DNA of 64,000 bases from Heterodontus francisci (taxonomy: Eukaryota). The translations under genes and the position numbers were made by a program. Positions 1,901-27,449 of this stretch are shown here, one piece after another (the first letter of the stretch is position 1; every line of letters starts with the position of its first letter). The notes under the pieces are model-generated. The model was given only the letters and a program-made list of their open reading frames with translations, was not told the origin of the DNA and did not search any database. The stretch is from positions 26,359,461 to 26,423,460 of the forward strand of contig NC_090403.1 of assembly GCF_036365525.1 (NCBI RefSeq). Reading direction: 5' to 3'.

Positions 1901-2107
1901 GAATTAAGGAGAAAGTAAGTGCTGTCATTGTGAGTGATGTAGTTAGTGAGTGAATGACTGAGTAGTTCTGCTGTCATTCTCACACCAATGGGCGGAAAAC
2001 ACTGGATTTAAATTTCCTGGTGTTGAAATTACTGATCAGGTTGATGATCTTACTCATACTCTCAATAAAACTCCAGTTCGAATAAAATAAACCCAGTGTT
2101 CACTCAC

Positions 2108-2504
2108 CTCGAATCCCTTCGAAAGTTTCATCAGGTTCAAGGGCTTGGTTTTCAGCGAGAGCCTCTGTTTTACACACTGTCGAGGAAAGGGACCGCCCTG
2201 AGAGGAGATAACAATCACTGTTACAATCAGCCCCAGAAACTGAAATACTACAGAATCACTGACTATTAATTAGCAAAATTATAAACTGCAAACTATTTCT
2301 CCTGATATGGCTTTTCACAACAAACAAACCCTGTGTGGTCCGGTTATGGTTCTGAATGTGTTTTAAACTCACCATTTCATTCAGTTTGCTCAGAGTCTCT
2401 GTGTTGAGAACTTGTTGTAACTGCAACCTCTCACAGCCCAGACTCAGGGTCCCGGGCAACAAGACCAACACCATCCAAAATCTCCAAACACTGGGGAAAG
2501 CCAT
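2108..2504 (-). CDS. IFN: Type I interferon, copy A (exons 1-2 only; the rest lies beyond the left window edge)
   Basis: Exon1 2504-2373 (MAFPSVWRFWMVLVLLPGTLSLGCERLQLQQVLNTETLSKLNEM, donor GTGAGT). Exon2 2197-2108 (acceptor ctctcag, GGPFPRQCVKQRLSLKTKPLNLMKLSKGFE, donor GTGAGT). Near-identical to exons 1-2 of complete copies B and C. Confidence 0.9.
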
Positions 2505-2590
2505 CCCAAGCGACCCAGAGTAAAACACTGATCTGAAGGATGAGTAACCGACGGCTTCGATGTTCAGCGCCAAAACGCTTCTTGTTCACT

Positions 2591-3545
2591 GACTGAAACT
2601 GTGAAAGTGGAAATGCAGCCGATTCTGATCCAGGAGCGACCGTCTGTGTTGCTGAATGGTGTGAGAGTGCGGCTGGATTCTGCTGGGATCTCTCACTGAC
2701 ACTGCCATGCTGTCGGATTTAATGTGTGGCATTACATTCGAAAAGTGAAAATATTCTGCAGGATTTTTGGAGTTTGTGCTATTTCTTTTTGATGTAAGGA
2801 ATCGAAAATCTGGAGACTCCAGAGCCAGCGACTGGAAAATCCCCGGTAGAAAAACATTGAACCAGCTCTCGATTCCAGTTCAATGTTGTGTGGGTTCAGA
2901 TCACCGGGGCATGAAGGGAGAGTCTGCATTGGGGGGAGTGTGAACATGTATTGGGGCTGTATTTTATAATCGGGTTTAGAGAGACACTGACAGCGGTAAT
3001 CCGGTGCCGCGGCTTTTAATGCTGACATTCGGCTCCAGAAAGAGCGATTCCCTTTTAAATCCACTCTCTCCCCGGTGTGCTCACATCGCGCTTTTCCTGT
3101 TCACACTTCGCAGGTTGGACATTGCAGAGACCCCGGGTCACAGCCCAGGGTCACCGCTTGATGCCGAATGTCTCCGCTCGGATTCACCTGTCGGAGAATC
3201 TGCTCATTCAGTGGAAGAAGTTTGTCATTTCTGGGCTCTTTTCTGCGGTCATTTTCAGAGTTTGTTTGAAAGAAAATTTAATCTGCTTCGACTCTGAGTC
3301 CCAAAGTGATCCCGCTCCCTTTTCTTTCATCATTTCTTTCTTGTATCCCTCCCGGGAAAGTGTCCGTGTCAGTTTCTCTGTGGAAATGAACCTTGTGTCA
3401 ATTACATCGAAAGTGAAAGTGTCTCAGGGAAAGTGACGAGTTTTGTCATTTCCGAAAGGGAGGAGAGTTTGTAAACAGAGCGGGTCACACTGAGAGGGCT
3501 GAGGGGGAGCTGCAACAGGGTTTGGGATATCCGGGATATCCCCGA
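2591..3545 (-). promoter_or_regulatory. Upstream regulatory region of IFN copy A (IRF and NF-kB motifs)
   Basis: GAAAGTGGAAA ~2603; GAAAAGTGAAA 2740; GGAAAATCCCC 2834-2844 (kB consensus GGGGATTTTCC on minus); GAAAGTGAAAGTG 3409-3421 (IFN-beta PRDI-like); GGGATATCCGGGATATCCCC 3524-3543; TATAAAA on minus at 2962-2968; CpG-rich. Confidence 0.7.
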
Positions 3546-4258
3546 TTCCAAAGGGAATGTCACAAAATCAATCTCATCTGAAACTGTGATCAAAAACTTC
3601 CGTCCGGGTGGATGTGGGACTGAGATCCCACGAGCACCAGCTTTAGCCGGGAGAAAAACTGCAATTTAGAATAATGCTGATGGTAACAGGATAATGGTGA
3701 ATAAAACTGTAGGAATTGTAAATAGTTTCGAATGGAGGCGGAAGGAGGGTTAGGGAATTTAAGGAGGAATGTTTAAAACACTGGTGGGTAACATAAAAGG
3801 AAGTAGCAAGGACTCTTAGCAGCGCGTCCATTATAATCTTACTCTGTACCTTTATCATTCTGCATAATTGGACTTCCTAATGTCAACATCTTGTCACCCC
3901 ATTGGGGTAGAGATTCCGCTTTGTAGGAATTCATGGGGAGAGCAAATAGATGGGTTTATCCCCAATTTTGCCTCATTGCGCTCCGAACGAAATTGGATGT
4001 TTTGAGATTTTGTTCTCGAGTTTCCGCTCAAATTCGTTTGCCAATCCCCAAACGCAAAATCTGCCATGAACCAACAAATCGGTCAGGGATTTCAAATGTA
4101 TTTTTAATAAAACTGCCTTAAACTGTTCGATTAGATATTTAAGAGTGGAAACAGTTGCAGTTTGATTCATACAGCAGAAAATGGATTTATCACAAAAAGT
4201 AAGCATTTTAAATGACACTATCAATCCTGCAGCTGTGAGATTTTAAATGACTGAAATT

Positions 4259-4788
4259 AAGAACAAAGAACAAAGAAAATTACAGCACAGGAACAGGCCC
4301 TTCGGCCCTCCAAGCCTACGCCGATCCAAATCCTCTCTCTAAACCTGTCGCCTATTTTCTAAGGGTCTGTATCTCTTTACTTCCTGCCCATTCATGTATC
4401 TGTCTAGATACATCTTAAAAGACGCTATCATGCCCGCGTCTACCACCTCCGCTGGCAAAGCGTTCCATGCACCCACCACCCTCTGCGTATAGAAATTTCC
4501 ACGCATATCCCCCCTAAACTTTTCCCCTTTCACTTTGAACTCGTGTCCCCTTGTAATTGAATACCCCACTCTGGGAAAAAGCTTCTTGCTATCCACTCTG
4601 TCTATACCTCTCATGATTTTGTACACCTCAATCAGGTCCCCCCTCAACCTCTGCCTTTCTAATGAAAATAATCCTAATCTGCTCAACCTCTCTTCATAGC
4701 TAGCGCCCTCCAAACCAGGCAACATCCTGGTGAATCTCCTCTGCACCCTCTCCAAAGCATCCACATCCTTTTGGTAATGTGGCGACCA
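4259..4788 (-). mobile_element. 5'-truncated young CR1 LINE, specific to the A-B spacer
   Basis: C-terminal ORF2 (QFWSPHYQKDVDALERVQRRFTRM...), (TTCTTTG)n tail, TSD AAATT (4254-4258 / 4789-4793). The empty site is visible at ~19260. Confidence 0.92.
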
Positions 4789-5155
4789 AAATTGGCATTT
4801 TAAAATATATAGGCCCATTTGTTAGTTATATTTGGGTGCAATAGTCATTTTCTTCGTAAAGTAAACTTGCCGAATCTTGTCCTTATTGCCCAAATGAAGC
4901 ACTTTAAGATTTGGATCCTCCGGAGAGGCCTGCAATTACAATGGTGATTAATTTATCCTGGCAATAAAGCCACTATTTTGGCACAAACTGCTTCCAGTGC
5001 AATTTTTTTTCTAAACTAGCGGTGAGAGTGGAAACTCAATTTGCCCTGGACGTAATTTGCAGGTAACAGCGGTCAATCTTTCACAGTTATTTCACTGACT
5101 TTGGGTGAGTTGCACTGAGCAAACCAGGACAAATAGTCATGTGGTAGTACAGAAC

Positions 5156-6297
5156 TTGAGAACTGCTAAAAATAGAGACATATTGTGGAAGCTTTTGTTC
5201 TTGCACTCATCAGGCCAACAGGCAAGAATAACCAATGTCAGGGGAAACAACAACTTATTCTGTATGAGAACAGAGTGCTGATTGGTTGGCAAGTGAAATC
5301 TGATTGGTAGAGGCTTTGACATGGAGCATGCACCAGTTTATGGTGACTGACAGTTAACTGTCAAGCTTTGTTTGAAATTTAAACCAGGCAGCTTGACTCT
5401 GGCTGGTCAAGGCATTTCTCTGAGGAATGAACCAGCAAATGGCTGAAACAGCGGCAATGTGTGTACATGTTCATTCTGTGTGCACCGAACAGAACCCTGC
5501 GTAATAAGATATGTAGCTTCCAGAACACACAAATGCGCCACACTGTGAGCCCGACTGACAATCTTCAGTTAGTTGTCAGTGTAATTCTTAGCACACTGCG
5601 GATTATTTAGCAAATGTTGTCCAATTGCAGAATCACATCTAATGTTGGACATTGTGTTCTGAGCTTTGCAACCTAGGGCTGGTTGGTTACGTCCTGTACG
5701 TTGCCTGCTGCAAACAGTGGAAGGGACAATTCACCAGTCTTTGGGATATGCAGCCTAAATACTTAGCATCACACTGGCATTGAAATTCATACATCACACA
5801 ACTCACTTGTGTGATAGGCAGGATGATGTTTGCCTTGACAGCAGCATCAGGTTAGTGGTGAACACCATGCGTGTTGCTACTGCATAGCGAACTTTACCTG
5901 TTGATCAATGTTTTGGGATACATTACCTCCAGGGTAATTTGAGGTAGACTGGGCATTTCTCAGGGCCACAAATAATGGCCTTACGCACGTTTCTATGTTT
6001 CCGTGATTTCCAGTGAGAAATGATCTGATCAGGGTCACCAATGTCACACAGGATTTCATTGATTCACCCTATTTCAGCATCAAGCTTGCATGGTGAGCAA
6101 ATGGCTCGGGCCCTATTTACGAGGTTGACCACAAAGTCAATCTTATAGCGCGTGGAACTGTAGGAATCCCAATACTTGTATTGAACAATGAAGTATAAGA
6201 TGTTGTTTTCCCTTACATTGGTTATTCCTGCGTGTTGTCCTGATGAGTGCAAAATGAAAAGCTTCGACAACATATCTCTATTTTAAGCAATTCTCAA
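5156..6297 (-). mobile_element. Penelope-like element remnant with ~105-bp inverted terminal repeats
   Basis: 5156-5260 is the reverse complement of 6193-6297. Internal remnants of the RT C-terminus (YWDSYSSTRYKI...LVNRARAICS) and GIY-YIG nuclease. Flanked by aaaccaggacaa / aaactaggacaa. Confidence 0.85.
6233..6272 (+). ncRNA. Minimal type I hammerhead ribozyme motif (Penelope-associated)
   Basis: TGTTGTC-CTGATGA-GTGCAAAAT-GAA-AAGCTT-C-GACAACA: perfect 7-bp stem I, intact core, weak stem II, palindromic AAGCTT stem III; predicted cleavage after C6265. Confidence 0.7.
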
Positions 6298-7815
6298 AAA
6301 CTAGGACAAGCGAGCGGAAAGTCCTCTTTGCTTTTTGTTAATTCTAAATTCCTATCCACCATTTATTTTGAGACTTGCATTATAAAATTGATGGTCTGAG
6401 TGCATAAAACAAGGCACTTCAGATGAAAAGAGGTAGAAATTATGATGTCACTTCGTGGGTGGGAGACAAAGGAATGAATAGAGGGTCGATGGAATGTTCG
6501 GGATGCAAAGCGGCAATAAACTGAACCATTTGGTCGCTGCGTAAAAGATAATGGGAGATTGACTAACAATTTAGGTGAAGCTGTTTGTCAGCATTTATCA
6601 TTGTAAATTGCTATGTTAGCATTTGAAATCCAATTTTGACATGGCAACTGCCAAACTGCCATGATATAATTGCAGCCTTTGGTCATAAGGTTGCTCTTTC
6701 CATATCTTTCTATTATTCGCTTGGAGAGAATAGTGCGAACTAATGGGAGGATTTGCAGGATGATTAACAGTCTGACAAATGGCGTCTTGAGCATTCCTTC
6801 CATGGCCATAAACATACCAATTGACAGATTGATCAGTCCAAGACAACAGGAGAGTATTATAGGCTCTCATAAACCATGCGGAGTATGGGGAATCCACTGG
6901 ATACATGTGCACACGTGGATGTCAACCCAGAATTCAGAACCAGAATTTGGACCCTCCATTGAGACACTCTGGGACATCCCATCCTCTGACCCGAGGCAGT
7001 AATCAAAATACTAAGCCAAAGGTTCACTCCAGGCCCTGGCGTGATCCTGTGGAATAAGTCTCTGAAGTTTTCCAACATGCATAGAAAAAATGTATATTGA
7101 TGAATTGACTGTGGACAAACCCAGGGGAAATGTATTCATAAGAAATGAGAGGATAGTCAGTGAAGGGCTGTGTGCACTTGTGGATGAATGAAGACTTGTG
7201 TTTGAACAAATGGTAGAAATATTGAGATGAATACACAAAAGCAAGGATGAAGTGCATATCAGTGGACCAAAGGGAAGGGAGGATAAAAACAAGTAAGTGT
7301 GAATGACAGTAGAAAATACACCAGGTCCAGATCATATGCAATCTAAGAAACTATGAAATAAGGTCAATGAGAGAAAGAACAAATCATAATTTTCCAATCA
7401 ACTTCAGAAACAAGTATTGTGCCAAAGGATTGCAGGGTGGCAAGATATTAGACTTAATTCAACTGTATGTAACTCTATGGAGTTCATAGTATGGGGTGAA
7501 ATAATTGAGAAGTCGGAGAAGCATGAGGGACAGTCAACACGAATCTGTAAATAATACTTGTGCTTGCAGAATACCGTTTAAGTTTTCAATAAGCTCACAT
7601 ACAAATCGACAGAAATGCAATCAGTGTTAAAGATATAGATTTTCAGAAGGTGTAAGACACTCCCACTTTTCACTCATTCTCACTCATCACACCCATTGAT
7701 TGATTTCCCCGTCTGTACTCTGTGTCAGATACTCCAGTCATCTCCTGCCGCCACCCATTCCTTTTCTCCGTCCATTTCCAATTGATGGCTTTATTTTGCC
7801 CTTTCCTGTTTAACA

Positions 7816-10716
7816 GGAACTGGTGGTCTGAGGTGTATTTGTTTTAATGCAAGAAGTGTAGTAGGTAAGGCAGATGAACTTAGGGCTTGGATTAGTACCT
7901 GGGAGTATGATGTTATTGCTATTACTGAGACTTGGTTAAGGGAAGGGCATGATTGGCAACTAAATATCCCAGGATACCGATGCTTCAGGCGGGATAGAGA
8001 GGGAGGTAAAAGGGGTGGAGGAGTTGCATTACTGGTCAAAGAGGATATCACAGCTGTGCTGAAGGAAGGCACTAAGGAGGACTCGAGCTATGAGGCAATA
8101 TGGGCAGAACTCAGAAATAGGAAGGGTGCGGTAACAATGTTGGGGCTGTACTATAGGCCTCCCAACAGCGAGCGTGAGATAGAGGTCCAAATATGTAAAC
8201 AGATTATGGAAAGCTGCAGGAGCAACAGGATGGTGGTGATAGGAGATTTTAGTTTTCCCAACATTGACTGGGATTCACTTAATGTTAGAGGTCTAGATGG
8301 AGCAGAATTTGTAAGGAGCATCCAGGAGGGTTTTCTAGAGCAGTATGTAAATAGTCCAACTCGGGAAGGGGCCATACTGGACCTGGTGTTGGGAAATGAG
8401 CCGGGCCAGGTGGTTGACGTTTCAGTAGGGGACTACTTTGGGAATAGTGATCACAATTCCGTAAGTTTTAGAATACTCATGGACAAAGACGAGAGTGGTC
8501 CTAAAGGAAGAGTGCTAAACTGGGGGAAGGCCAACTATACCAAAATTCGGCAGGAGCTGGGGAATGTAGATTGGGAGCAGCTGTTTGAAGGTAAATCCAC
8601 TTTTGATATGTGGGAGGCTTTTAAAGAGAGGTTGATTAGCGTGCAGGAGAGACATGTTTCTGTGAAAATGAGGGGTAGAAATGGCAAGATTAGGGAACCA
8701 TGGATGACAGGTGAAATTGTGAGACTAGCAAAGAGGAAAAAGGAAGCACACATAAGGTCTAGGCGGCTGAAGAAAGACGAAGCTTTGAAAGAATATCGGG
8801 ATTGTAGGACCAATCTGAAACGAGGAATTAAGAAGGCTAAAAGGGGTCATGAAATATCTTTCGCAAACAGGGTTAAGGAAAATCCCAAAGCCTTTTATTC
8901 ATATATAAGGAGCAAGAGGGTAACTAGAGAAAGAATTGGCCCACTCAAGGACAAAGGAGGAAAGTTATGCGTGGAGTCAGAGAAAACGGGTGAGATTCTA
9001 AACGAGTACCTTGCATCGGTATTCACTGAGGAGAGGGACATGACGGATGTTGAGGTTAGGGACAGATGTTTGATTACTCTAGGTCAAGTCGGCATAAGGA
9101 GGGAGGAAGTGTTGGGTATTCTAAAAGGCATTAAGCTGGACAAGTCCCCAGGTCCGGATGGGATCTATCCCAGGTTACTGTGGGAAGCGAGAGAGGAAAT
9201 AGTTGGGGCCTTAACAGATATCTTTGCAACCTCCTTAAACACGGGTGAGGTCCCGGAGGACTGGAGAATTTCTAATGTTGACCCCTTGCTTAAGAAGGGT
9301 AGCAGGGAAAGTCCAGGTAATTATAGACTGGTGAGCCTGACGTCAGTGGTAGGGAAGCTGCTGGAGAAGATACTGAGGGATAGGATCTATTCCCATCTGG
9401 AAGAAAATGGGCTTATCAGTGATAGGCAACATGGTTTTGTGCAGGGAAGGTCATGTCTTACCAACTTAATAGAATTCTTTGAGGAAGTGACAAAGTTGAT
9501 TGATGATGGAAGGGCTGTAGATGTCATATACATGGACTTCAGTAAGGCGTTTGATAAGGTTCCCCATGGTAGGCTGATGGAGAAAGTGAAGGCGCATGGG
9601 GTCCAAGGTGTACTAGCTAGATGGATAAAGAACTGGCTGGGCAACAGGAGACAGAGAGTAGCAGTGGAAGGGAGTTTCTCAAATTGGAGACGTGTGACCA
9701 GTGGTGTTCCACAGGGATCTGTGCTGGGACCACTGTTGTTTGTGATATACATAAATGATTTGGAGGAAAGTATAGGTGGTCTGATTAGCAAGTTTGCAGA
9801 CGACACTAAGATTGGTGGAGTAGCAGATACTGAAGGGGACTGTCAGAGAATACAGCAGAATATAGATAGATTGGAGAGTTGGGCATAGAAATGGCAGATG
9901 GAGTTCAATCAGGGCAAATGCGAGGTGTTGCATTTTGGAAGATCCAATTCAAGAGTGAACTATACAGTAAATGGAAAAGTCCTGGGGAAAATTGATGTAC
10001 AGAGAGATTTGGGTGTTCAGGTTCATTGTTCCCTGAAGGTGGCAACGCAGGTCAATAGAGTGGTCAAGAAGGCATACGGCATGCTTTCCTTCATCGGACG
10101 GGGTATTGAGTGCAAGAGTTGGCAGGTCATGTTACAGTTGTATAGGACTTTGGTTCGGCCACATTTGGAATACTGCGTGCAGTTCTGGTCGCCACATTAC
10201 CAAAAGGATGTGGATGCTTTGGAGAGGGTGCAGAGGAGGTTCACCAGGATGTTGCCTGGTATGGAGGGCGCTAGCTATGAAGAGAGGTTGAGTAGATTAG
10301 GATTATTTTCATTAGAAAGACGGAGGTTGAGGGGGGACCTGATTGAGGTGTACAAAATCATGAGAGGTATAGGCAGGGTGGATAGCAAGAAGCTTTTTCC
10401 CAGAGTGGGGGATTCAATTACAAGGGGACACGAGTTCAAAGTGAAAGGGGAAAAGTTTAGGGGGGATATCTGTGGAAACTTCTTTACGCAGAGGGTGGTG
10501 GGTGCATGGAACGCATTACCAGCGGAGGTGGTAGACGCGGGCACGATAGCGTCTTTTAAGATGTATCGAGACAGATACATGAATGGGCAGGAAGTAAAGA
10601 GATACAGACCCTTAGAAAATAGGCGACAGATTTAGATAGAGGATCTGGATCGGCGTATTCTTGGAGGGCCGAAGGGCCTGTTCCTGTGCTGTACTTCTCT
10701 TTGTTCTTTGTTCTTC
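7816..10716 (+). mobile_element. Young CR1 LINE with almost complete ORF2 (APE endonuclease + RT), specific to the A-B spacer
   Basis: Frame runs from CFNARS...ITETWL through KFADD to RRQI with one in-frame TAG at 9886-9888; (TTCTTTG)n tail; TSD TAACA 7811-7815 / 10717-10721; empty site at ~22190. Confidence 0.97.
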
Positions 10717-10986
10717 TAACACCTAAGGCTTAATCCTCTCTCATTTGGAGTGCGGATATGAAGTTGAGAAAAGAGTGGAAAATCAGGTAAATTGGGTTTG
10801 AAATGGATTGACAGCTTTGAGCAGTGAGGGAAAATCAGACAGCAGAGAGAGGAGACTTGAGCAGAGATTGTATCAGTAACAGACAGCAAGGAGAAAAATC
10901 CAGAGCATTTATAGTGAGTATGGAAAACTGATCAACACAAATGAGAAATAGATATTATTCTTGTAAATGTGAATTTTTGAAAACAA

Positions 10987-11575: not shown

Positions 11576-14500
11576 TCAGTTTCTTCTTCTGATTTTTGCT
11601 GTTATAACAAGGATCTGTTGTAAACAGGCTCTGGTCTCAGTGCGGATTATTTCCCAGGCACAGTCACTGAATATCTGAAGGAAGGAAATATTCGGGAAAA
11701 TCCATTAGAGAATCAATAGATTTAAATGGGGTGAAATGAACTCCATGCTAGTAATTACACAGAAAATACCAATTGTCCCACCTTCTGTTTGAGAAACTTT
11801 TCCAGTTTCCTGAAGTATTTGTGAATGGCAGTCTTGCTCCTGGGCTTGGACTCTGATCTCAATTTCCAGACACATTCTTCCAGCTCTCCGAGTTGCCGAT
11901 CGAGGAGAAGACGAAAGTTTTCCACCTTGTCTCGGGGCCATGTAACTGAGCCCAGGTTCATGCTGTAGATCTTGTTGATGTGACGCAGGGTTTGATGGAC
12001 AATCTGGATGCTGTCCTGGGCCTGTGCACAACAGACACAATGACATTAGAGGGGGTCTTATACCTTTTCGGTTTAAAGTAGTTATGGAAAGGAACAAGGA
12101 ATAGGTCAACAGTAAATAAGCAACGGGAGGCTTTAATAGTGAAGACATCTTGGGTACAGACTGGGTTCATTCCTATGAAGCAGTAAGTAAGGACATGCAA
12201 AAATTCGAGCTCCGTGGATAGAGAGCTTAAATAGATAGTGAAAAGGAAGGCTTCTCATAAATATTAGGCTCATAATAACGTGGGGAACGAAGCTGAATAT
12301 AGACAGTACAGAGGAGAACTATCAAAGAAATGAGGGGCAGAGTGCATAAAAAATGGACTAGCTGCAAACAAAAAAGGGAAGCTACAAATCTTTTACAAGC
12401 ATGTAAAGGGAAAGAAGGGTTAGTAATTAGTGGCCGGAAAAGCAATTTTCTTCTGGAGCAGGGGGTACAGCTGAGGATCTAAATGATTAATTTGCACGTG
12501 TCTTCACTAAATAGGATGGTTCGAATATCACAGTAAAGATGGGTGTTTGGCAGAGGTGGAGGTAGAAGAAAAATTGGATAGGGTGAAAATAGATACAGAG
12601 GAGGTAGTTAAAAGATTGATAGCACTCTAAGTAGGAAAGTCACCCGGTCTGGATAGAATATGTCTCAGGTTGCTGAGGAAAGTAAGTGCTGAAATAATGG
12701 AAGTTCTGGCCACAATTTTCCAGTCCTCCTCAGATGTGAGAGTGATGCCAAAGGACTGGAAGTTTTCTTCCTGTTCAAAAAAGAAAGAGGGTAAACTTGA
12801 CAACCACAGGCCTGTTCGCCCTTCATGGGTGGCGGGAAGTTTGTCGACACTATTTTTCCAAGGTAAAAGGAATTGTCACTTACCAAAATATGACTTAGTA
12901 AATGTCAACCAGTAAAAATTTGTTAAGGTAAAATCATGTTGCCTAACTTGATTGAGTTATTCGATCAAGTAGCAGAAAGGATTGCTGAGGGAGGTGTGGT
13001 GATTGTTGTGTATGTAGATCTTCAAAATATCTGTATACGGTTTTGCTGAATTGATGGTGAAAAAATTCAATAATAGGTTTGAAAGGGAAATTGAGTAAAT
13101 AGTTGAAGAGGAAAGGTTTGCATGGCTATGGGAAATAGTGAGGGGAGTGGGAATAATTGGATAATTCATTCAAAGAGCCTGCACAAGCATGATGAGCCAC
13201 ATGGCCTCTTCTGTACCATTCAATGATTCTATGACGTAACCTGCCCTGATGGTGCAAACCACACAGCCAATCACTGTAGCTCAGGAGTGAGATGGTTAGA
13301 GGGAGGCAGATTGTTACATTGTGTAAGATGAATGGGTGAGTTTAAATAATTAGAGGAACTGAGATGATGAGAAGCAAAGTAATTTGACAAGATTCATGGT
13401 TAACATAGATGGAGGTTGTGAAATGGTTAAAAGAATGATTAGGGGACACTGGCGTACTGATAATGTTACTTGAATACTAATTCAGACGCCAGGAAAAAGC
13501 TCTGGGAACATGAGTCCAAATCCCACCAGAGTGGCTGGTGGAAATTAAATTTAATTATTAAATCTGCGGTTAAAAGCGAGTCTCATTTATGGTTACCATG
13601 AAACTATTGGATTGTCAATAAAAACACATCTATTTCATCATTGCCAAATCTACTGTCCTTACCTGGTCTGGCCTACATGTGACTCCAGACCTGACTCTGA
13701 AAGGGCCTAGCAAGCCATTCAGTTGTATCAAACCACTGTAGAAAAGTTGAATAAGAATAAAACTTGACAGATTGACCACAGCACCAGAAATGACAATGTC
13801 AGACTCTGACCAGTCAACCCTACAAAATCCTCCTTACTATTTATCTGGGGACCTGTGCCAAAATAAAGAGAACTGTCCCACAGACTGCACAAGTTTGCCT
13901 GGCAGATTCATACTCACTGAATCATACCATACAGCTATTGTCCCAGACTACTCCGTCATCATCGCAATGGGACAAGATATACCCACCAGAAGTAGTTGCA
14001 CAGTATTAAACAGTGGGGAGGGAGTGTGCTCAACATTGACTCCAGACCCCATGAATTCTTACACCATCAGGCCAAACATGGGCAAGGAAATCACCTGCTG
14101 ATTACCACCTAAAACCTCCCTCAGACGATCAAACTTGCTCTGCCACACAATAAGATCATGGCTGATCCGATTGTGACATTAACTCCACTTTCCTCCCTTA
14201 ACCAGCACCACCCCCATATCTCTTGTCTCCCCAGTAGATCAAAAATCTGTCTAACTCAGCCTTGAATATGTTCGGTGAATCAACCACCACTGCTCTCTGG
14301 GGAAGAGAATTCCAAATATTAAAGACCCTCTGAGAGAAGAAAGACCTCCTCGTTTCCATCTTAAAAAGAGACTCCTTATTTTACAATTGTGCCCCCTTGT
14401 CTATCTCATGAAGAAAAACATCCTGTCAGCATCTACGCTGTCAAGCCCCCTCAGAATATTATATGTTTCAATGAGATCACCTCTCATTCTTCTAATCTCC

Positions 14501-17500
14501 AATGAGTATAGCCCCAACCTCATCAACCTTTCCTCATAAGACAACCCTTTCATCCTAGGAATCAGCCCAGAGAGCTTTTGCTGAACTGCTTCCAATGCAT
14601 GTATATCCCTCAGATGATGAATCAGTACTCCTTCATGTTTGACACCACTTTGAGGAAGCAGTGTGGGTCGTAATGGCACTGAATGTACTCTTGGTGGAGA
14701 ACCTCAATGCCCATCACCAAGAGTGGCTCAGTAGCAGCACTACTGACCGAGCTGGTCCAGTCCTGATAGATGTAACATCCAGACTGGGCCTGCAGCAAGT
14801 GGTGATGATCCAGGAAAAAGGAAATTTGCCTGACATCGCCCTCACCAAGCGACCTGTTGCAGATGCATCTGTCCATGACAGTATTGGGAGGAGTGAGTAC
14901 CACATAGTCCTTATGGAGATGATGTCCTATCTTCACTCTGAGGATACTGTCCATTGTGTGCAATGGCACTACCACGGTGCTAAATGGGATACATTCAGGA
15001 CAGATCTAGCAGCTGAAAACTGGGCATCCATGAGGCACTGTGAGCCATCAGCAGCAGCAGAATTGTATTCAATCACACTCTGTAACTGCATGGCCTGGCA
15101 TATCCCTCACTCGACCATCACCATCAAGCCAGAGGATCAGACCTGGTTCAATGAGGAGTTTAAGAGAGCAAGCCAGGAGCAGCACCAGGGATATCTAAAA
15201 ATGAGATATCAACCTGGTGAAGCTACCACACAGGACAACATGCATGTTAAACAGCAGAAGCAGCATGCCATAGAGCTAAGAGATCCCACACCAATGGATC
15301 AGATCAAAGCTCTGCAGCCCTGCCACATCCAGTTGTGTATGGTGGTGGACAATTAAACAACTGACAGGAGGAAAAGGCTCCACAAACATCCCCAGTGTCA
15401 ATGCTGAGGGAGCCCAGAACATTAGTGCAAAAGACAAGGCTAAAGTATTTGCATCCATCTTGGCCTCCTCGTGAGGTCCCCAGCATCATAGATGCAAATC
15501 TTCAACCAATTCAATTCACTCCACGTGATATCAAGAAATGGCTGAAGGGACAGGATACAGCAAAGGCTATAGGGCCTGACAACATCCTGGCAGTAGAATT
15601 GAAGACTTGTTCTCCAGAATAAGCTGCACCCTTAGCCAAGCTTTTCCAGTACAGCTATAACATTGCGATCTACCAACAAAGCAGAAAATTGCCCAGGTGT
15701 GTCATGTGCACAAAAGACAGTTCAAATCCGATCTGGCCAATTTCCATCCCATCAGTCTGCTCTCGATCATCAGCAAAGTGCTGGAGGGTGTGGTCAACAG
15801 TTCTATCAAGTGGCACTTACACAGCAATAACCTGTTCACTGATGCACAGTTTGGGTTCCAACAGGGCTATCCAGCTCCAGGCCTCATAATAGCCTTTGTC
15901 CAGACATGGACAAAAGGGCTGAATTCAAGTGGTAAGATGAGAGTGACTGACTTGACATCAAGGCAGCATTTGACTGAGTGTGGAATCAAAGAGCCCTAGC
16001 AAAATTGAAGTCAATGTGAATCAGGGGGTAAACTCTTCATTGATTGGAGTCATACCTAGAACAAATGAAGATGATTGTGGTTGTTGACAGCCAAACATCT
16101 AAGCCCCAGGACATCGCTGCAGGAGTTTCACAGGTTAATGTCCCAGACCTAACCATCTTCAGCCGCTTCATCAATGACCTTCCCACCATCAGAAGCTCAG
16201 AAGTGGGAATGTTCACTGATGACGTTATTCAGTACCAACCGTGACTCCTCAGGTACTCAAGCAGTTCATCTCCACCTGCAGCAAGAGCTGAACAACATTC
16301 AGGCTTCGGCTGATAAGTGACAAGTAACATTCATGACCACAAGTGCCAAGCAATGACCATCTCCAACAAGAGAGAATCTAACCATCTCCACTTGATATTC
16401 AACAACATTACCATCACTGAATATCCCACTATCAACATCCTGAGGGTTATCATTGACCAGAAACTTAACAGGACCAGTCATATAAATACTGTGGCAACAA
16501 GAGCAGCTCAGAGGCTGGTAATTCTGCGGGAGTAATTCACCTCCTGACTCCCCAATGCCAGTCCACCACCTACAAGGCACAAGTCAGGAATGTGATGGAA
16601 TACTCTCCACTTGCCTGGATGAGTGCAGCTCCAACAACACTCAAGATGCTCGACACCATCCAGGACAAAGCAGCCCAATTGATTGACACCTGATCCAACA
16701 CCTTCAACATTCTCTCCCTCCACCAGCATTGCAGTGTGTAACTTGTACAAGATGCACTGCAGCAAATCACCAAGAATTCTTCGACAGCACTTTCCAAAGC
16801 TGCAACCTCTACCACAGCAGCTGCTTGGCAACACTATCACCTGCGTGTTCCCCTCCAAGCTACAAACCATCCTGACTTGGGAGTATATCGCCGTTCCTCC
16901 ACTGTTAGAATTAAGGAGAAAGTAAGTGCTGTCATTGTGAGTGATATAGTTAGTGAGTGAATGACTGAGTAGTTCTGCTGTCCTTCTCACACCAATGGGC
17001 GGAAAACACTGGATTTAAATTTCCTGGTGTTGAAATTTCGGATCAGGTTGATGATCTTACTCATACTCTCAATAAAACTCCAGTTCGAATAAAATAAACC
17101 CAGTGTTCACTCACCTCGAATCCCTTCGAAAGTTTCATCAGGTTCAAGGGCTTAGTTTTCAGCGAGAGCCTCTGTTTTACACAGTGTCGAGGAAAGGGAC
17201 CGCCCTGAGAGGAGATAACAATCACTGTTACAATCAGCCCCAGAAACTGAAATACTACAGAATCACTGACTATTAATTAGCAAAATTATAAACTGCAAAC
17301 TATTTCTCCAAATATGGCTTTTCACAACAAACAAACCCTGTGTGGTCCGGTTATGGTTCTGAATGTGTTTTAAACTCACCATTTCATTCAGTTTGCTCAG
17401 AGTCTCTGTGTTGAGAACTTGTTGTAACTGCAACCTCTCACAGCCCAGACTCAGGGTCCCGGGCAACAAGACCAACACCATCCAAAATCTCCAAACACTG

Positions 17501-17511
17501 GGCAAAGCCAT
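11576..17511 (-). CDS. IFN: Type I interferon, copy B; 4 coding exons, 186 aa
   Basis: Exons 17511-17380 (44 aa, hydrophobic signal peptide ending SLG|C), 17204-17115 (30 aa), 12021-11782 (80 aa, AQDSIQIVHQTLRHINKIYSMNLGSVTWPRDKVENFRLLLDRQLGELEEC...YFRKLEKFLKQK) and 11674-11576 (IFSDCAWEIIRTETRACLQQILVITAKIRRRN*). All introns are GT-AG and phase 0. The CAWE motif and YF..L..FL helix are type I IFN hallmarks. Confidence 0.95.
12170..13230 (+). mobile_element. Old degraded CR1 fragments in intron 2 of copy B
   Basis: Remnants resembling CR1 ORF2 (LRKVSAEIMEVLATIFQSS..PKDWK) and a CR1-like 3' end; duplicated at ~23650-24710. Confidence 0.65.
13640..16905 (+). mobile_element. Decayed CR1/L2-group LINE in intron 2 of copy B, with nested minus-strand CR1 3' fragment (~14135-14610)
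   Basis: EN/RT fragments (LNAHHQEWL, PISLLSIISKVLE, FINDLP, MFTDD). The nested piece encodes GLSYEERL..LGLYSLE.RRMRGDLIETY. Confidence 0.85.
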
Positions 17512-17597
17512 CCCAAGCGACCCAGAGTAAAACACTGATCTGAAGGATGAGTAACCGACGGCTTCGATGTTCAGCGCCAAAACGCTTCTTGTTCACT

Positions 17598-18552
17598 GAC
17601 TTAAACTGTGAAAGTGGAAATGCAGCCGATTCTGATCCAGGAGCGACCGTCTGTGTTGCTGAATGGTGTGAGAGTGCGGCTGGATTCTGCTGGGAACTCT
17701 CACTGGCACTGCCATGCTGTCGGATTTAATGTGTGGCATTACATTCGAAAAGTGAAAATATTCTGCAGGATTTTTGGAGTTTGTGCTATTTCTTTCTGAT
17801 GTAAGGAATCGAAAAGCTGGAGAGTCCAGAGGCAGCAACTGGAAAATCCCCGGTAGAAAAACATTGAACCAGCTCTCGATTCCAGTTCAACGTTGGGTGG
17901 GTTCAGATCACCGGGGCATGAAGGGAGAGTCTGTATTGGGGGGAGTGTGAACATGTATTGGGGCTGTATTTTATAATCCGGGTTTAGAGAGACACTGACA
18001 GCGGTAATCCGGTGCCGCGGCTTTTAATGCTGACATTCGGCTCCAGAAAGAGCGATTCCCTTTGAAATCCACTCTCTCCCCGGTGTGCTCACATCGCGCT
18101 TTTCCTGTTCACACTTCGCAGGTTGGACATTGCAGAGACCCCGGGTCACAGCCCAGGGTCACCGCTTGATGCCGAATGTCACCGCTCGGATTCACCTGTC
18201 GGAGAATCTGCTCATTAAGTGGAAGAAGTTTGTCATTTCTGGGCTCTTTTCTGCGGTCATTTTCAGAGATTGTTTGAAAGAAAATTTAATCTGCTTCGAC
18301 TCTGAGTCCCAAAGTGATCCCGCTCCCTTTTCTTTCATCATTTCTTTCTTGTCTCCCTCCCGGGAAAGTGTCCGTGTCAGTTTCTCTGTGGAAATGAACC
18401 TTGTGTCAATTACATCGAAAGTGAAAGTGTCTCAGGGAAAGTGACGAGTTTTGTCATTTCCGAAAGGGAGGAGAGTTTGTAAACAGAGCGGGTCACACTG
18501 AGAGGGCTGAGGGGGAGCTGCAACAGGGTTTGGGATATCCGGGATATCCCCG
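17598..18552 (-). promoter_or_regulatory. Upstream regulatory region of IFN copy B
   Basis: kB site 17841-17851; GAAAGTGAAAGTG 18417-18429; tandem GGGATATCC(CC) 18532-18551; same layout as copy A. Confidence 0.7.
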
Positions 18553-19627
18553 ATTACAAAGGGAATGTCACAAAATCAATCTCAGCTGAAACTGTGATCA
18601 AAATCTTCCGTCCGGGTGGATGTGGGACTGAGATCCCACGAGCACCAGCTTTAGACGGGAGAAAAACTGCAATTTAGAATAATGTTGATGGTAACAGGAT
18701 AATGGTGAATAAAACTGTAGGAATTGTAAATAGTTTCGAATGGAGGCGGAAGGAGGGTTAGGGAATTTAAGGAGGAATGTTTAAAACACTGGTGTGTAAC
18801 ATAAAAGGAAGTAGCAAGGACTCTTAGCAGCACGTCCATTATAACCTTACTCTGTACCTTTATCATTCTGCATAATTGGACTTCCTAATGTCAACATCTT
18901 GTCACCCCATTGGGGTAGAGATTCCGCTTTGTCGGAATTCATGGGGAGAGCAAATAGATGGGTTTATCCCCACTTTTCCCTTGGCGCACCGAACGGAATT
19001 TGCACGTTTTGAGATTTTGTTCTCGAATTTCCGCTCAAATTCGTTTGCCAATCACCAAACGCAAAATCTGCCATGAGCCAACAAATCGGTCAGGGATTTC
19101 AAATATATTTTTAATAAAACTGCCTTAAAATGTTCGATTAGATATTTAAGAGTGGAAACAGATGCAGTTTGATTCATACAGCAAAAAATAGGTTTATCAC
19201 AAAAAGTAAGCATTTTAAATGACACTATCAATCCTGCACCTGTGAGATTTTAAATGACTGAAATTGACATTTTAAAATATATAGGCCCATTTGTTAGTTA
19301 TATTTGGGTGCAATAGTCATTTTCTTACTAAAGTAAACTTGCCGATTCTTGTCCTTATTGCCCAAATGAAACACTTGACATTTTGGATCCTCCGGAGAGG
19401 CCTGCAATTACAATGGTGATTAATTCATCCTGGCAATTAAGCCACTATTTTGGCACAACCAGCTTCTAATGCAATCTTTTTTGTGAACTAGCGTCGAGAG
19501 TGGAAAGTCACTTTGCCCTGGACGTAATTTATAGGTAACAGGAGGCAATCTTTCACACTTATTTCACTGACTTTGGGTGAGTTGCACTGAGCAAACCAGA
19601 ACAAATAGTCATGTGGTAGTACAGAAC

Positions 19628-20691
19628 TTGAGAAGTGCTCAAAATAGAGATATGTTGTGGAAGCTCTTGGTCTTGCTCTCATCAGGACAACAGGCAAGAA
19701 TAACCAATGTAAGGGAAAACAACATCTTATTCTGTATGAGAACAGAGTGCTGATTGGTTGGCAAGTGAATTCTGATTGGTAGAGGCTTTGCCATGGAGCA
19801 TGCATCAGTTTATGGTGACTGACAGTTAACTGTCAAGCGTTGTTTGAAATTTAAACCAGGCAACTTGAACAGAGCCCTGTATATTAAGCCATGTAGCTTC
19901 CAGTAAACACAAATGCGCCACACTGTGAGCCCAACTGACAATCTTCAATTAGTTGTCAGTGTAATTCTTAGCACACTGCGGATTATTTAGCATATGTTGT
20001 CCAATTGCAGAATCACATCTAATGTTGGACACTGTGTTCTGAGCTTTGCAACCTAGGGCTGGTTGGTTACGTCCTGTGCGTTGCCTGTTGCAAACAGTGG
20101 AAGGGACATTTTGTTTGATACAATTCACCAGTCTTTGGGATGTACAGCCAAAATACTTAGCATCACACTGGCATTGAAATTCATACATCACACAACTCAC
20201 TTGTGTGATAGGCAGGATGATGTTTGCCTTGACAGCAGCATCAGGTTAGTGGTGAACACCATGCGTGTTGCTACTGCATAGCAAACTTTACCTGTTGATC
20301 AATGTTTTGGGATACATTACCTCCAGGGTAATTTGAGGTAGACTGGGCATTTCTCAGGGCCACAAATGATGGCCTTACGCACGTTTCTATGTTTCCGTGA
20401 TTTCCAGTGAGAAATGATCTGATCAGGGTCACCAATGTCACACAGGATTTCATTGATTCACCCTATTTCAGCATCAAGCTTGCATGGTGAGCAAATGGCT
20501 CGGGCCCTATTTACGAGGTTGACCACAAAGTCAATCTTATAGCGCGTGGAACTGTAGGAATCCCAATACTTGTATTGAACAATGAAGTATAAGATGTTGT
20601 TTTCCCTTACATTGGTTATTCCTGCGTGTTGTCCTGATGAGTGCAAAATGAAAAGCTTCGACAACATATCTCTATTTTAAGCAATTCTCAA
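19628..20691 (-). mobile_element. Penelope-like element remnant with inverted terminal repeats (second copy)
   Basis: ORF 20200-19949 reads VMYEFQCQCDAKYFGCTSQRLVNCIKQ (GIY-YIG-like); same inverted repeats as 5156-6297. Confidence 0.85.
20627..20666 (+). ncRNA. Minimal type I hammerhead ribozyme motif (second copy)
   Basis: Identical to 6233-6272. Confidence 0.7.
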
Positions 20692-22462
20692 AAACTAGGA
20701 CAAGCGAGCGGAAAGTCCTCTTTGCTTTTTGTTAATTCTAAATTCCTATCCACCATTTATTATGAGACTTGCATTATAACATTGATGGTCTGAGTGCATA
20801 AAGGAAGGCACTTCAGATGAAAAGAGGTAGAAATTATGATGTCACTTCGTGGGTGGGAGATAGAGGAATAAATAGAGCGTCTGTGGAATGTTCGGGATGC
20901 AAAGCGGCAATAAACTGAGCCATTTGGTCGCTGCATAAAAGATAATGGGAGATTGACTAACAATTTAGGTGAAGTTTGTCAGCATTTATCATTGTAAATT
21001 GTTATGTCAGCATTTGAAATCCAATTTTGACATGGCAACTGCCAAACTGCCATGATATAATTGCAGCCTTTGGTCATAAGGTTGCTCTTTCCATATCTTC
21101 AAATTATTCCCTTGGAGAGAATAGTGCGAACTAATGGGAGGATTTGCAGGATGATTAACAGTCTGACAAATGGCGTCTTGAGCATTCCTTCCATGGCCAT
21201 AAACATACCAATTGACAGATTGATCAGTCCAAGACAACAGGAGAGTATTATAGGCTCCCAAAAACCATGCGGAGTATGGGGAATCCACTGGATATATATG
21301 TCCACGTGAATGTCAACCCAGAATTTGGATCTTCCATTGAGACACTCTGGGATATCCCATTCTCTGACCCGAGGCAGTAATCATAATACTAAGCCAAAGG
21401 TTCACTCCAGGCCCTGGCCTGATCCTGTGGAATAAGTCTCTGAAGTTTTCCAACATGCATAGAAAAAATGTATATTGATTAATTGACTGTGGACAAAGCC
21501 AGGGGAAATGTATTAATAAGAACTAAAAGGACAGTCAGTGAAGGGCTGTGTGCGCTTGTGGATGAATGAAGACTTGTGTTTGAACAAATGGTAGAAATAT
21601 TTTGATGAATGCACAAAAGCAAGGATGAAGTGCATATCAGTGGACCAAAGGGACGGGAGGATAAAAACAAGTAAGTGTGAATGACAGTAGAAAATACACC
21701 TGGTCCAGATCATATGCAATCTAAGAAACTATGAAATAAGGTCAATGAGAGAAAGAACAAATCATAATTTTCCAATCAACTTCAGAAACAAGTATTGTGC
21801 CAAAGGATTGCAGGGTGGCAAGATATTAGACTTAATTCAGCTGTATGTAACTCTGTGGAGTCCATAGTATGGGGTGAAATAATTGAGAAGTCGGAGAAGC
21901 ATGAGGGACAGTCAACACGAATCTGTAAATAATACTTGTGCTTGCAGAATACCGTTTAAGTTTTCAATAAGCTCACATACAAATCGATAGAAATGCAATC
22001 AGTGTTAAAGATATTGATTTTCAGAAGGTGTAAGACACTCCCACTTTTCACTCATTCTCACTCATCACACCCATTGACTGATTTCCCCGTCTGTACTCTG
22101 TGTCAGATACTCCAGTCATCTCCTGCCGCCACCCACTCCTTTTCTCTATCTGTCCATTTCCAACTGATGGCTTTATTTTGCCCTTTCCTGTTTAGCATCT
22201 CAGGCTTAATCCTCTCTCATTTGGAGTGCGGATATGAAGTTGAGAAACGAGTGGAAAATCAGGTAAATTGGGTTTGAAATGGATTGACAGCTTTGAGCAG
22301 TGAGGGAAAATCAGACAGCAGAGAGAGGAGACTTGAGCAGAGATTGTATCAGTAACAGACAGCAAGGAGGAAAATCCAGAGCATTTATAGTGAGTATGGA
22401 AAACTGATCAACACAAATGAGAAATAGATATTATTCTTGTAAATGTGAATTTTTGAAAACAA

Positions 22463-23051
22463 TTTATTTACACCAACATATGTTCATTCAGTATAAAAGA
22501 TTTCCAGTTTACAAAAACATTGTCTATCCCACAACTCTTAATAAATATCAATAAGTTAATTTTTAAACTCACTTTACACATTGTATAACACTGTAACATT
22601 TCATGATGTGAACAAATCACAACAATAAATATCAATGAATTAGGATGAATTGAGATGGATTGTAGTTTGGGCTCTTTGGAGAGCAGAATTGGAAAGGTCA
22701 GTGTGACTCAGGGTTCATTGATCTGCAAACCTACACCCTTGAGAGCCCAATAGTGCATTCAAAACCAGACTCCCCACAATGAGCCCTTCAGCATTTCATC
22801 ACAGGAAATTATGACAGCAATAAATATAAATAAATTAAAATAAATAATTAAATATGAAACAATATTAAGCCAGTCATTCTTCTCTATCGGTCATTTTGCT
22901 GCCAATGGCATCATTACAGCAATCCAATTACATTAAAATATTAAATAAAATAAATACTGTTAAATAAAATATATGTAGTTATACATTTAAGGCATTTAAA
23001 ATAAATATTTATTTTTTCCAGTCTGTACTGAAACATGTCTTTGGAAAGTCT
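22463..23051 (-). promoter_or_regulatory. 3' UTR of IFN copy C with AU-rich elements and candidate poly(A) signal
   Basis: Same ATTTA clusters (about 22815-23010); AATAAA on minus at 22463-22468. Confidence 0.7.
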
Positions 23052-25660
23052 TCAGTTTCTTCTTCTGATTTTTGCTGTTATAACAAGGATCTGTTGTAAA
23101 CAGGCTCTGGTCTCAATGCGGATTATTTCCCAGGCACAGTCACTGAATATCTGAAGGAAGGAAATATTCGGGAAAATCCATTAGAGAATCAATAGATTTA
23201 AATGGGGTGAAATGAACTACATGCTAGTAATTACACAGAAAATACCAATTGTCCCACCTTCTGTTTGAGAAACTTTTCCAGTTTCCTGAAGTATTTGTGA
23301 ATGGCAGTCTTGCTCCTGGGCTTGGACTCTGATCTCAATTTCCAGACACATTCTTCCATCTCTCCGAGTTGCCGATCGAGGAGAAGACGAAAGTTTTCCA
23401 CCTTGTCTCGGGGCCATGTGACTGAGCCCAGGTTCATGCTGTAGATCTTGTTGATGTGTCGCAGGGTTTGATGGACAATCTGGATCCTGTCCTGGGCCTG
23501 TGCACAATAGACACAATAACATTAGAGGGGGTCTCATACCTTTCAGGTTTAAAGTAGTTATGGAAAGGAACAAGGAATAGGTCAACAGTAAATAAGCAAC
23601 GGGAGGCTTTAATAGTGAAGACATCTTGGATACAGACTGGTCTCATTCCTATGAAGCAGAAAGTAAGGACATGCAAAAATTCGCGCTCCGTGGATAGAGA
23701 GCTTAAATAGATAGTGAAAAGGAAGGCTTCTCATAAATATTAGGCTCATAATAACGTGGGGAACGAAGCTGAATATAGACAGTACAGAGGAGAACTATCA
23801 AAAAAATGAGGGGCAGAGTGCAGAGAAAATAGACTAGCTGCAAACATAAAAGGGAAGCTACAAATCTTTTATAAGCATGTAAAGGGAAAGAAGGGTTAGT
23901 AATTAGTGGCCGGAAAAGCAATTTTCTTCTGGAGCAGGGGGTACAGCTGAGGATCTAAATGATTAATTTGCACGTGTCTTCACTAAATAGGATGGTTCAA
24001 ATATCACAGTAAAGATGGGTGTTTGGCAGAGGTGGAGGTAGAAGAAAAATTGGATAGGGTGAAAATAGATACAGAGGAGGTAGTTAAAAGATTGATAGCA
24101 CTCTAAGTAGGAAAGTCATCCGGTCTGGATAGAATATGTCACAGGTTGCTGAGGAAAGTAAGTGCTGAAATAATGGAAGTTCTGGCCACAATTTTCCAGT
24201 CCTCCTTAGATGTGAGAGTGATGCCAAAGGACTGGAAGTTTTCTCCCTGTTCAAAAAAGAAAGAGGGTAAACTTGACAACCACAGGCCAGTTCGCCTATC
24301 ATGGGTGGCGGGAAGCTTGTAGACACTATTTTTCCAAGGTAAATTGAATTGTCACTTACCAAAATATGACTTAGTAAATGTCAACCAGTAAAAATTTGTT
24401 AAGGTAAAATCATGTTGCCTAACTTGATTGAGTTATTCGATCAAGTAGCAGAAAGGATTGCTGAGGGAGGTGTGGTGATTGTTGTGTATATAGATCTTCA
24501 AAATATCTGTATACGGATTTGCTGAATGGATGGTGAAAAAATTCAATAATAGGTTTGAAAGGGAAATTAAATAAATCGTTGAAGAGGAAAGATTTTCATG
24601 GCTATGGGAAATTGGGAGGGGAGTGGGAATAATTAGATAATTCATTCAAAGAGCCTGCACAAGCATGATGAGCCACATGGCCTCTTCTGTACCTTTCAAG
24701 GATTCTATGACTTAACCTGCCCTGATGGTGCAAACCACACAACCAATCACTGCAGCACAGGAGTGAGATGGTTAGAGGGAGGCAGATTGTTACATTGTGT
24801 AAGATGAATGGGTGAGTTTAGATAATTAGAGGAAGTGAGATGATGAGAAGCATGGTAATTTGACAAGATTCATGGTTAACATAGATGGAGGGTGTGAAAT
24901 GATTAAAAGAATGATTAGGGGACACTGGCGTACTGATAATGTTACTTGAATACTAATTCAGACGCCAGGAAAAAGCTCTGGGAACATGAGTCCAAATCCC
25001 ACCAGAGTGGCTGGTGGAAATTAAATTTAATTATTAAATCTGCTGTTAAAGGCTAATCTCATTTATGGTTACCATGAAACTAATGGATTGTCAATAAAAA
25101 CACATCTATTTCATGAATAAAAACAAGAAATGCTGGAACCAATCAACAGGTCTGGCAGCATCTTCAGACCCTTCTTCAGAACTTCGGTTCTCCAGGTTGA
25201 TGATCTTACTCATACTCTCAATAAAACTCCAGTTTGAATAAAATAAACCCAGTGTTCACTCACCTCGAATCCCTTCGAAAGTTTCATCAGGTTCAAGGGC
25301 TTGGTTTTCAGCGAGAGTCTCTGTTTTACACAGTGTCGAGGAAAGGGACCGCCCTGAGAGGAGATAACAATCACTGTTGCAATCAGCCCCAGAAACTGAA
25401 ATACGACAGAATCACTGACTATTAATTAGCAAAATTACAAACTGCAAACTATTTCTCCTGATATGGCTTTTCACAACAAACAAACCCTGTGTGGTCCGGT
25501 TATGGTTCTGAATGTGTTTTAAACTCACCATTTCATTCAGTTTGCTCAGAGTCTCTGTGTTGAGAACTTCTTGTAACTGCAACCTCTCACAGCCCAGACT
25601 CAGGGTCCCGGGCAACAAGACGAATACCATCCAAAATCTCCAAACACTGGGCAAAGCCAT
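23052..25660 (-). CDS. IFN: Type I interferon, copy C; 4 coding exons, 186 aa
   Basis: Exons 25660-25529, 25353-25264, 23497-23258 and 23150-23052; GT-AG phase-0 introns; intact frame with CAWE motif. Differs from copy B at L13F, Q31E, S78R, L121M and T166I. Confidence 0.95.
23650..24710 (+). mobile_element. Old degraded CR1 fragments in intron 2 of copy C
   Basis: Paralog of 12170-13230. Confidence 0.65.
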
Positions 25661-25747
25661 CCAAACCGACCCAGAGTAAAACACTGATCTGAAGGATGAG
25701 TAACCGACGGCTTCGTGGTTCAGCGCCCAAAACGCTTCTTGTTCACT

Positions 25748-27300: not shown

Positions 27301-27449
27301 AAAGTTTTGGAAAGTTTTTGTTGCGTTTCTGCTCAAACTCATTTGCCAGTCACCAAACGCAAAATCTGCCATGAACCAGCATTGTCATTTTTAAAAATTG
27401 CTTTAAATATTCTTTTATACATTTTATACACTGATGCAGTTTTTTAAAA

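Follow-up and report, generated by a model that had tools for sequence, protein, structure and literature searches.

A head-to-tail array of intron-containing type I interferon genes in the shark Heterodontus francisci: probable homogenisation of gene and promoter, and possible exon mosaicism in elasmobranchs

Described type I interferon systems and the Heterodontus locus

Type I interferon (IFN) genes of cartilaginous fish are composed of four exons and three introns, compared with five exons in teleosts (PMC5332411), and those of the human IFNA cluster on chromosome 9 are intronless. Among the human IFNA genes, gene conversion is well documented (PMC3161012); at the level of the family, Redmond 2019 favours birth-and-death over concerted evolution (PMC6640115). 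The present analysis concerns 64,000 nucleotides of contig NC_090403.1 of Heterodontus francisci (assembly GCF_036365525.1, forward-strand positions 26,359,461 to 26,423,460), hereafter the window, which includes the right-hand end of a tandem type I IFN cluster. It contains three head-to-tail minus-strand genes, A, B and C, with four exons and three introns, all in phase 0, a layout that matches the one published for cartilaginous fish (PMC5332411). The cluster is a real and probably functional cartilaginous-fish IFN array, to judge from its sequence, and we regard it as quite probable, taking the interpretation as a whole, that this functional array has homogenised genes and promoters.

Compared with the elephant shark genes IFN1-3, the genes in the window are new genomic copies. 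They fall into one sequence family with the rows for spiny dogfish (Squalus), little skate (Leucoraja) and catshark (Scyliorhinus) in Table S2 of Redmond 2019, and in a comparison by eye they are unlike its row for elephant shark IFN4, designated a ‘new locus’ (PMC6640115). By elimination against the latter row, the IFN-f-like expansion, rather than the amniote-sister shark IFN1 lineage of that study, would be their likelier home. The synteny with growth hormone and CD79 known for cartilaginous-fish IFNs is not visible within the window, and such neighbours may lie outside it. The teleost IFNa/IFN-phi1 proteins (PDB 7wkh and 3piv) are the best matches in both sequence and structure (31% identity) and are likewise encoded by genes with introns, but in the alignments neither of the two teleost chains has the second cysteine pair. 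Human IFNA proteins share the four-cysteine pattern at about 25% identity to the shark genes; these human genes being intronless, exon-bounded mosaicism cannot arise in them. The ‘alpha’ in RefSeq names of shark proteins does not imply orthology to human IFNA.

Array layout and gene structure

Six-frame searches of the 64 kb returned the exon with the initial ATG three times and the exon with the CAWE motif twice, the latter in B and C only, all on the minus strand. The exons and the visible part of the truncated intron are:

25529..25660, minus strand: gene C exon 1 (putative signal peptide and helix A, 44 codons; six-frame search and splice joining)
25264..25353, minus strand: gene C exon 2 (AB loop, 30 codons)
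23258..23497, minus strand: gene C exon 3 (80 codons, three helices; PF00143, E 7.8e-11)
23052..23150, minus strand: gene C exon 4 (CAWE helix and stop codon)
17380..17511, minus strand: gene B exon 1
17115..17204, minus strand: gene B exon 2
11782..12021, minus strand: gene B exon 3 (PF00143, E 2e-11)
11576..11674, minus strand: gene B exon 4
2373..2504, minus strand: gene A exon 1
2108..2197, minus strand: gene A exon 2 (exons 3-4 are beyond the left edge)
1..2107, minus strand: visible part of intron 2 of A, with a block of decayed long interspersed nuclear element (LINE) pieces as in B; 2.2% from B

The exons measure 132, 90, 240 and 99 nt, each divisible by three, and all seven introns visible from end to end are bounded by GT and AG. 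Genes B and C are complete, and their spliced frames encode 186 amino acids (aa) each, with differences at five of these (positions 13, 31, 78, 121 and 166) and at 10 of 561 nt. Gene A is truncated where its intron 2 runs leftward out of the window; in the visible exons 1-2 it differs from B at 2 of 74 aa and 3 of 222 nt. Intron 2 is 5093 bp long in B and 1766 bp in C, and by analogy with B the third exon of A should lie about 3.0 kb beyond the left edge of the window. According to self-comparison, the repeat unit consists of gene plus spacer (about 11.5 kb), and duplicated DNA extends from base 1 to approximately position 27,118, beyond which an older paralogy reaches 32,359. A tblastn search of the window with B produced 24 rows, namely the 10 known exons and 14 rows at E values of at least 1.0, with no extra IFN exon or pseudo-exon, and an nhmmer search with gene-body tiles found no exon relic at 27-64 kb.

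The sequence-only reading of this DNA had described three spliced GT-AG, phase-0 genes on the minus strand, with the protein lengths and differences given above, a CAWE motif and an intron-containing structure, all of which were re-derived here; its view that the array continues to the left agrees with the expected position of exon 3 of A. The span that it assigned to the array, 2108-25660, holds for the exons and falls short of the duplicated DNA.

Family identity and protein features

Searched singly against Pfam, exon 3 passes the curated cut-off of the Interferon family, PF00143 (44.8 bits in B and 42.8 in C, against 26.8), exon 4 scores just below it, and exons 1 and 2 had no match. A search with exon 3 gave 39 protein matches from a pool of 65 candidates, and sharks and rays were the only sources. 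The nearest is a 186-aa RefSeq protein of H. francisci named ‘interferon alpha-14-like’ (P0002), the representative of a cluster of nine proteins at 90% identity; it is identical to B at 181 of 186 residues and to C at 178, and forms a clade with both of them (support 100/100), but is not identical to A, B or C. When a profile of 33 of the matched proteins was compared with the PDB, the top sequence matches were all interferons (E values down to 1.5e-23). A structure model of P0002, used as a proxy for B, has a predicted local distance difference test score (pLDDT) of 82.7. The top 11 Foldseek matches of this model are type I IFNs, with target-normalised template modelling (TM) scores of up to 0.88 and carp and zebrafish IFN the best; the 30 matches listed at E ≤ 0.001 are type I IFN, and the first non-IFN appears at rank 42 (E 0.087). 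On the evidence of the Pfam family and the predicted five-helix fold, the genes are type I interferons, as the sequence-only reading had proposed.

Cysteines 24, 52, 124 and 159 align with the cysteines of human IFN-omega and are conserved in 36-39 of the 39 aligned rows, with the disulfides predicted only. A putative signal peptide is suggested by hydrophobicity, which peaks at aa 9-17, and by Cys24, which aligns with the beginning of mature IFN-omega; the predicted mature protein has 163 aa and is basic (isoelectric point 10.1). A fifth cysteine, at residue 171 (codon 11626-11624 in B and 23102-23100 in C), is probably unpaired; it is otherwise present only in P0002, and 31 of the 39 aligned rows have arginine at this position.

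Regulatory motifs and proposed function

The regions flanking the genes on both sides are:

2505..3947, minus strand: upstream control region of A, with IRF-element-like sites at -236 and -905 and kB-like sites at -330 and -1029
17512..18976, minus strand: upstream control region of B, with sites as in A (motif scan)
25661..27118, minus strand: upstream control region of C, its far end being the limit of the tract of about 97% identity
22193..23051, minus strand: 3′ untranslated region (UTR) and flank of C, with an ATTTA cluster and AATAAA at +38 and +583 past the stop codon
10717..11575, minus strand: 3′ UTR and flank of B, with an ATTTA cluster; 2.0% from C

The 64 kb contains nine strict IRF-element-like matches, every one of them within A, B or C units; their positions are about -236, about -906 and inside intron 1. 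The 1 kb upstream of B contains two IRF-element-like sites, a number that none of 1000 shuffles reaches. Within 600 nt of the 3′ flank there are 11 ATTTA motifs in C, which none of 1000 shuffles reaches, and 10 in B, with as many in one of 1000 shuffles. The intron 1 IRF-element-like site is found in all three genes (2236-2245, 17243-17252 and 25392-25401). Each start codon is preceded within 400 bp by four upstream ATGs (about -204 to -354).

The coding changes between B and C, five synonymous and five replacement, give a pN/pS of 0.27 (P 0.042), which speaks for function. Gene anatomy of this kind is consistent with a secreted cytokine made from transcripts that are inducible and short-lived, with induction and signalling inferred. 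By analogy with known IFN biology, virus sensing would lead IRF3/7, and perhaps NF-kB, to activate the genes; the mRNA would be short-lived, with AU-rich 3′ elements; and the secreted 163-aa basic cytokine would act through IFNAR1/IFNAR2-type receptors and JAK-STAT signalling, the near-identical copies mainly adding dosage. Receptors of the IFNAR type are present in the elephant shark (PMC5332411).

Paralogous copies and their homogenisation

The spacers and the retroelement blocks that distinguish the copies are:

13639..17043: block of decayed LINE pieces, 3.4 kb, in intron 2 of B (also in A)
3948..7815: intergenic spacer of A, differing by 3-7% from that of B; it carries a 535-bp CR1 3′ fragment (4255-4788) and a 92-bp insertion, both absent from B
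7816..10716, plus strand: 5′-truncated CR1-type LINE (endonuclease and reverse transcriptase), an insertion separating A from B whose empty site is at 22193-22197
18977..22197: intergenic spacer of B

With a divergence of 1-7% and private retroelement insertions in their assembled sequences, A, B and C are to be read as paralogs, not haplotypes. Two young CR1-type copies (7816-10716 and about 4255-4794), 26 of 537 bases (4.8%) apart and in opposite orientations, both lie in the A spacer, where the corresponding sites of the B spacer are empty and apparent 5-bp target-site duplications are seen; the 2.9-kb copy has one stop in a 950-codon frame. Coding exons as similar as those of A and B (3 of 222 nt) or B and C (10 of 561 nt) are what would be expected if one or more copies were assembly or haplotype duplicates. 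Such an origin is nevertheless very unlikely, because the flanks differ by 2-7%, four insertions of 92 bp to 3.4 kb are present in some copies and absent from others (two of them with the apparent target-site duplications), and three versions cannot all be alleles in a diploid; the nucleotide diversity reported for a shark, admittedly a different species, the epaulette shark, is 0.002 (PMC10587355). At the place of the 3.4-kb intron block of A and B, gene C has a 78-bp fragment of a short repeat (25115-25192), which could mark an insertion-associated deletion; related short repeats occur near 41.4-41.6 kb and 47.5 kb.

Divergence between A and B is distributed unevenly: it amounts to 1.1-2.2% from intron 2 through the first exons to the end of 1.45 kb of promoter; farther on it reaches 5.9% and 7.4% before dropping to 3.2% (heterogeneity over seven segments, chi-square P 3e-13). 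The presumably neutral LINE debris of intron 2 differs at 44 of 2035 positions, compared with 63 of 909 immediately beyond the tract (P 1.4e-9). The longest stretch of complete identity measures 393 bp, a length that none of 1000 permutations reaches. The 97% identity of C ends where the divergence of A and B jumps. Beyond this point the flank of C contains two older features:

27300..31827: old paralogous sequence collinear with the B spacer; the three blocks measured are 76-81% identical, and other insertions interrupt it
31888..32359, minus strand: gene-less relic of the distal IRF-element block, about 67% identical to B 18104-18539 (E 7e-36)

Tiles of the B spacer match 27,300-31,827 with order and strand kept, and the reversed-sequence control gave no matches. 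The relic retains an IRF-element-like site at 32203-32213 and no exons adjoin it; it may be what is left of a deleted IFN unit, or else a distal enhancer that was retained. Within the relic, the cores of the IRF-like and kB-like sites are better kept than the sequence around them.

These observations fit homogenisation better than one recent duplication. In the scenario that we propose, the array would be old; units would have been gained by duplication and lost, and gene conversion or unequal crossing-over would have overwritten them time and again. This replacement would span the gene and about 1.45 kb of promoter, the spacers would retain older divergence and private retroelements, and one unit would have lost its gene, leaving the relic. 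Because the zone of low divergence includes presumably neutral retroelement DNA, homogenisation beyond selection is indicated. The well-documented conversion among human IFNA genes (PMC3161012) makes this a process of a known kind. The suggestion of the sequence-only reading that the array is actively homogenised agrees with the patchy divergence of A and B and the tract boundary in C.

Several observations weigh against this interpretation. The heterogeneity of B/C divergence over six segments is not significant (P 0.10), and, of the 62 differences in the shared tract, those private to one copy (32 in C, 13 in A and 16 in B) also fit the topology ((A,B),C). Three copies without an outgroup locus do not allow conversion to be distinguished from unequal crossing-over, and the low divergence of the promoter may be due in part to selection. 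With respect to function, the IRF and kB patterns were consensus patterns, the former being written down after the sequence had been read; kB-like sites are not enriched (121 of 1000 shuffles reach their number); no canonical TATA box is present within 400 bp upstream; and the pN/pS test of B against C is based on 10 changes in all.

The non-significant B/C heterogeneity and the private differences are also among the points in favour of plain tandem duplication of the 11.5-kb unit with no later exchange, the pattern then being due to selection and local differences in mutation rate. The unit is indeed a clean head-to-tail repeat of gene and spacer, and the birth-and-death mode is the one that Redmond 2019 supports for IFN1 overall (PMC6640115). 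We nevertheless consider plain duplication unlikely, given that the adjoining spacer is three times as divergent as the retroelement debris in intron 2 and that the flank of C past the tract is old paralogy, not unrelated DNA, which a single duplication does not yield. It is also conceivable that the copies, although intact, are partly silent spares or donors, with one alone being induced: the 2.9-kb and 535-bp CR1 elements lie within the upstream spacer of A, and the relic at 31.9-32.4 kb suggests that a unit was lost at this locus. The retention of IRF-element-like sites, splice sites and open frames in all three copies makes this highly improbable, and a functional array with homogenised genes and promoters is the interpretation that we adopt.

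The sequence-only reading had also suggested a very recent expansion. This is doubtful given that neutral intron DNA differs by 2.2-3.5% between the copies, about ten times the diversity of the epaulette shark (PMC10587355). At the mutation rate of that species, 7e-10 per generation (PMC10587355), a divergence of 2.2% corresponds to 15.7 million generations (7.8-78.6 over the interval of the rate). The 25% divergence of the old paralogy would correspond to 179 million generations, which seems too old, and the dating is accordingly kept as an order of magnitude only: millions of generations.

Conflict between exons 1-2 and exons 3-4 across sharks

The two halves of the protein support different trees. 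In a first set, B, C and 30 of the 39 proteins of the exon 3 search (n = 32; the nine omitted are partial, divergent or batoid rows) were divided into residues 1-74 (exons 1-2) and 75-186 (exons 3-4), both of which are short. Eight proteins from eight genera form a lineage, denoted c, in the tree of exons 1-2 (bootstrap 100) and are scattered in the tree of exons 3-4; c was defined from N-terminal motifs, and only the C-terminal tests are independent of this definition. Monophyly of c is rejected for the C-terminal half (approximately unbiased (AU) test, P 0.0012), and same-species grouping is rejected for the N-terminal half (P 1e-41). A split at the exon 2/3 boundary yields a likelihood gain of 128.5, compared with 45.3 ± 12.3 for random splits, none of which reaches it in 200. 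Peaks in the breakpoint scan fall at residues 44 and 70-74, which is where introns 1 and 2 are located; the 10 residues diagnostic of c are all found within 3-72. An initial AU test, in which the best tree of each half was applied to the other half, was biased by construction and was replaced by the constraint tests and random partitions. In a second set (B, C and 45 of 74 proteins from a wider search), two sawfish proteins group with c in the N-terminal tree (support 100) and with rays in the C-terminal tree (96).

Not every c protein shows this pattern. The nearest C-terminal neighbour of a c protein is a non-c protein of the same species in three of the eight cases (Heptranchias, where the two are only 7% apart, Heterodontus and Pristiophorus), a non-c protein of another species in one case and another c protein in four. 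The inputs were protein-level cluster representatives from automatic gene models, among which chimeric models are possible in tandem arrays. Between two further N-terminal types, a and b, whose definition is based on exon 2, that exon follows the type, whereas exon 1 is closer within an order (0.15 and 0.09) than within a type (0.29 and 0.15).

We give an even chance to the interpretation that elasmobranch type I IFNs are exon-block mosaics, in which exons 1-2 would represent old, allelic-like lineages, exons 3-4, with the helices that contact IFNAR1 among their products, would be repeatedly overwritten within lineages, and introns 1 and 2 would serve as exchange boundaries. As part of this interpretation, one exon 1-2 lineage would be common to sharks of eight genera and to sawfish. 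In the structure model, exons 1-2 encode helix A and the AB loop. In human IFN these two elements form the main contact with IFNAR2, in which the last helix also takes part, whereas the middle helices contact IFNAR1 (PMC8980424). By analogy, we hypothesise that receptor interaction could be tuned through exons 1-2 on a common C-terminal chassis.

Interferon clusters in other elasmobranchs

The wider search yielded 74 clusters at 90% identity, 11 of which are named elasmobranch clusters from nine genera with 7-24 members each (24 in Hypanus, 22 in the basking shark, 14 in the catshark and nine in H. francisci); these counts may include isoforms and sequences of sister species and only suggest copy number. 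IFN clusters are common in sharks and rays, and the array is ordinary for the group. The sequence-only reading had called the array hidden and possibly under-annotated in related assemblies, a description that these named clusters and the RefSeq-named H. francisci protein, 97% identical to B, do not support. The literature search returned no paper on Heterodontus IFN loci or on exon-level mosaicism of shark IFNs, a weak negative given that subscription journals were mostly uncovered; the passages of PMC13176653 that were covered mention neither gene conversion nor sharks.

Remainder of the window

Among 207 frames of at least 45 codons searched against Pfam, nearly all of them taken from non-repeat sequence at 27.1-64 kb, no host gene was found in the roughly 37 kb upstream of C (27119-64000); the matches were retroelement-type domains and one weak match at E 0.007. 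The window has no Rfam match, and the tandem-repeat search gave three trivial rows. A longer CR1-type element at 49600-53700 encodes a first open reading frame (ORF1) with a GDSL esterase domain (PF13472, E 5e-13) and a reverse transcriptase, and is 78% identical to the CR1-type copy at 7.8 kb. Decayed pieces of long terminal repeat (LTR) retrotransposons at 56300-61750 include RNase H, the integrase zinc-binding and core domains, a zinc knuckle and a weak SCAN match. A single older LINE family, to which the intron 2 block of A and B also belongs, is represented by many 3′ fragments at 27441-47495, which are 65-93% alike.

Implications for interferon evolution in sharks

The array provides a DNA-level example of a homogenised, intron-containing IFN cluster in which the tract boundary can be mapped, the flank past it is older paralogy and one unit was probably lost. 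The conflict between exons bears on the dispute over birth-and-death versus concerted evolution of type I IFNs (PMC6640115), and suggests that both modes act, on different parts of the gene. If the mosaic interpretation is true, birth-and-death and concerted evolution act on different halves of one gene, trees of whole shark IFN proteins are misleading, and the tract boundary and the gene-less enhancer relic would be traces of the exchange at the level of DNA. The exon conflict also predicts functional subtypes set by exons 1-2, which the current RefSeq names would miss.

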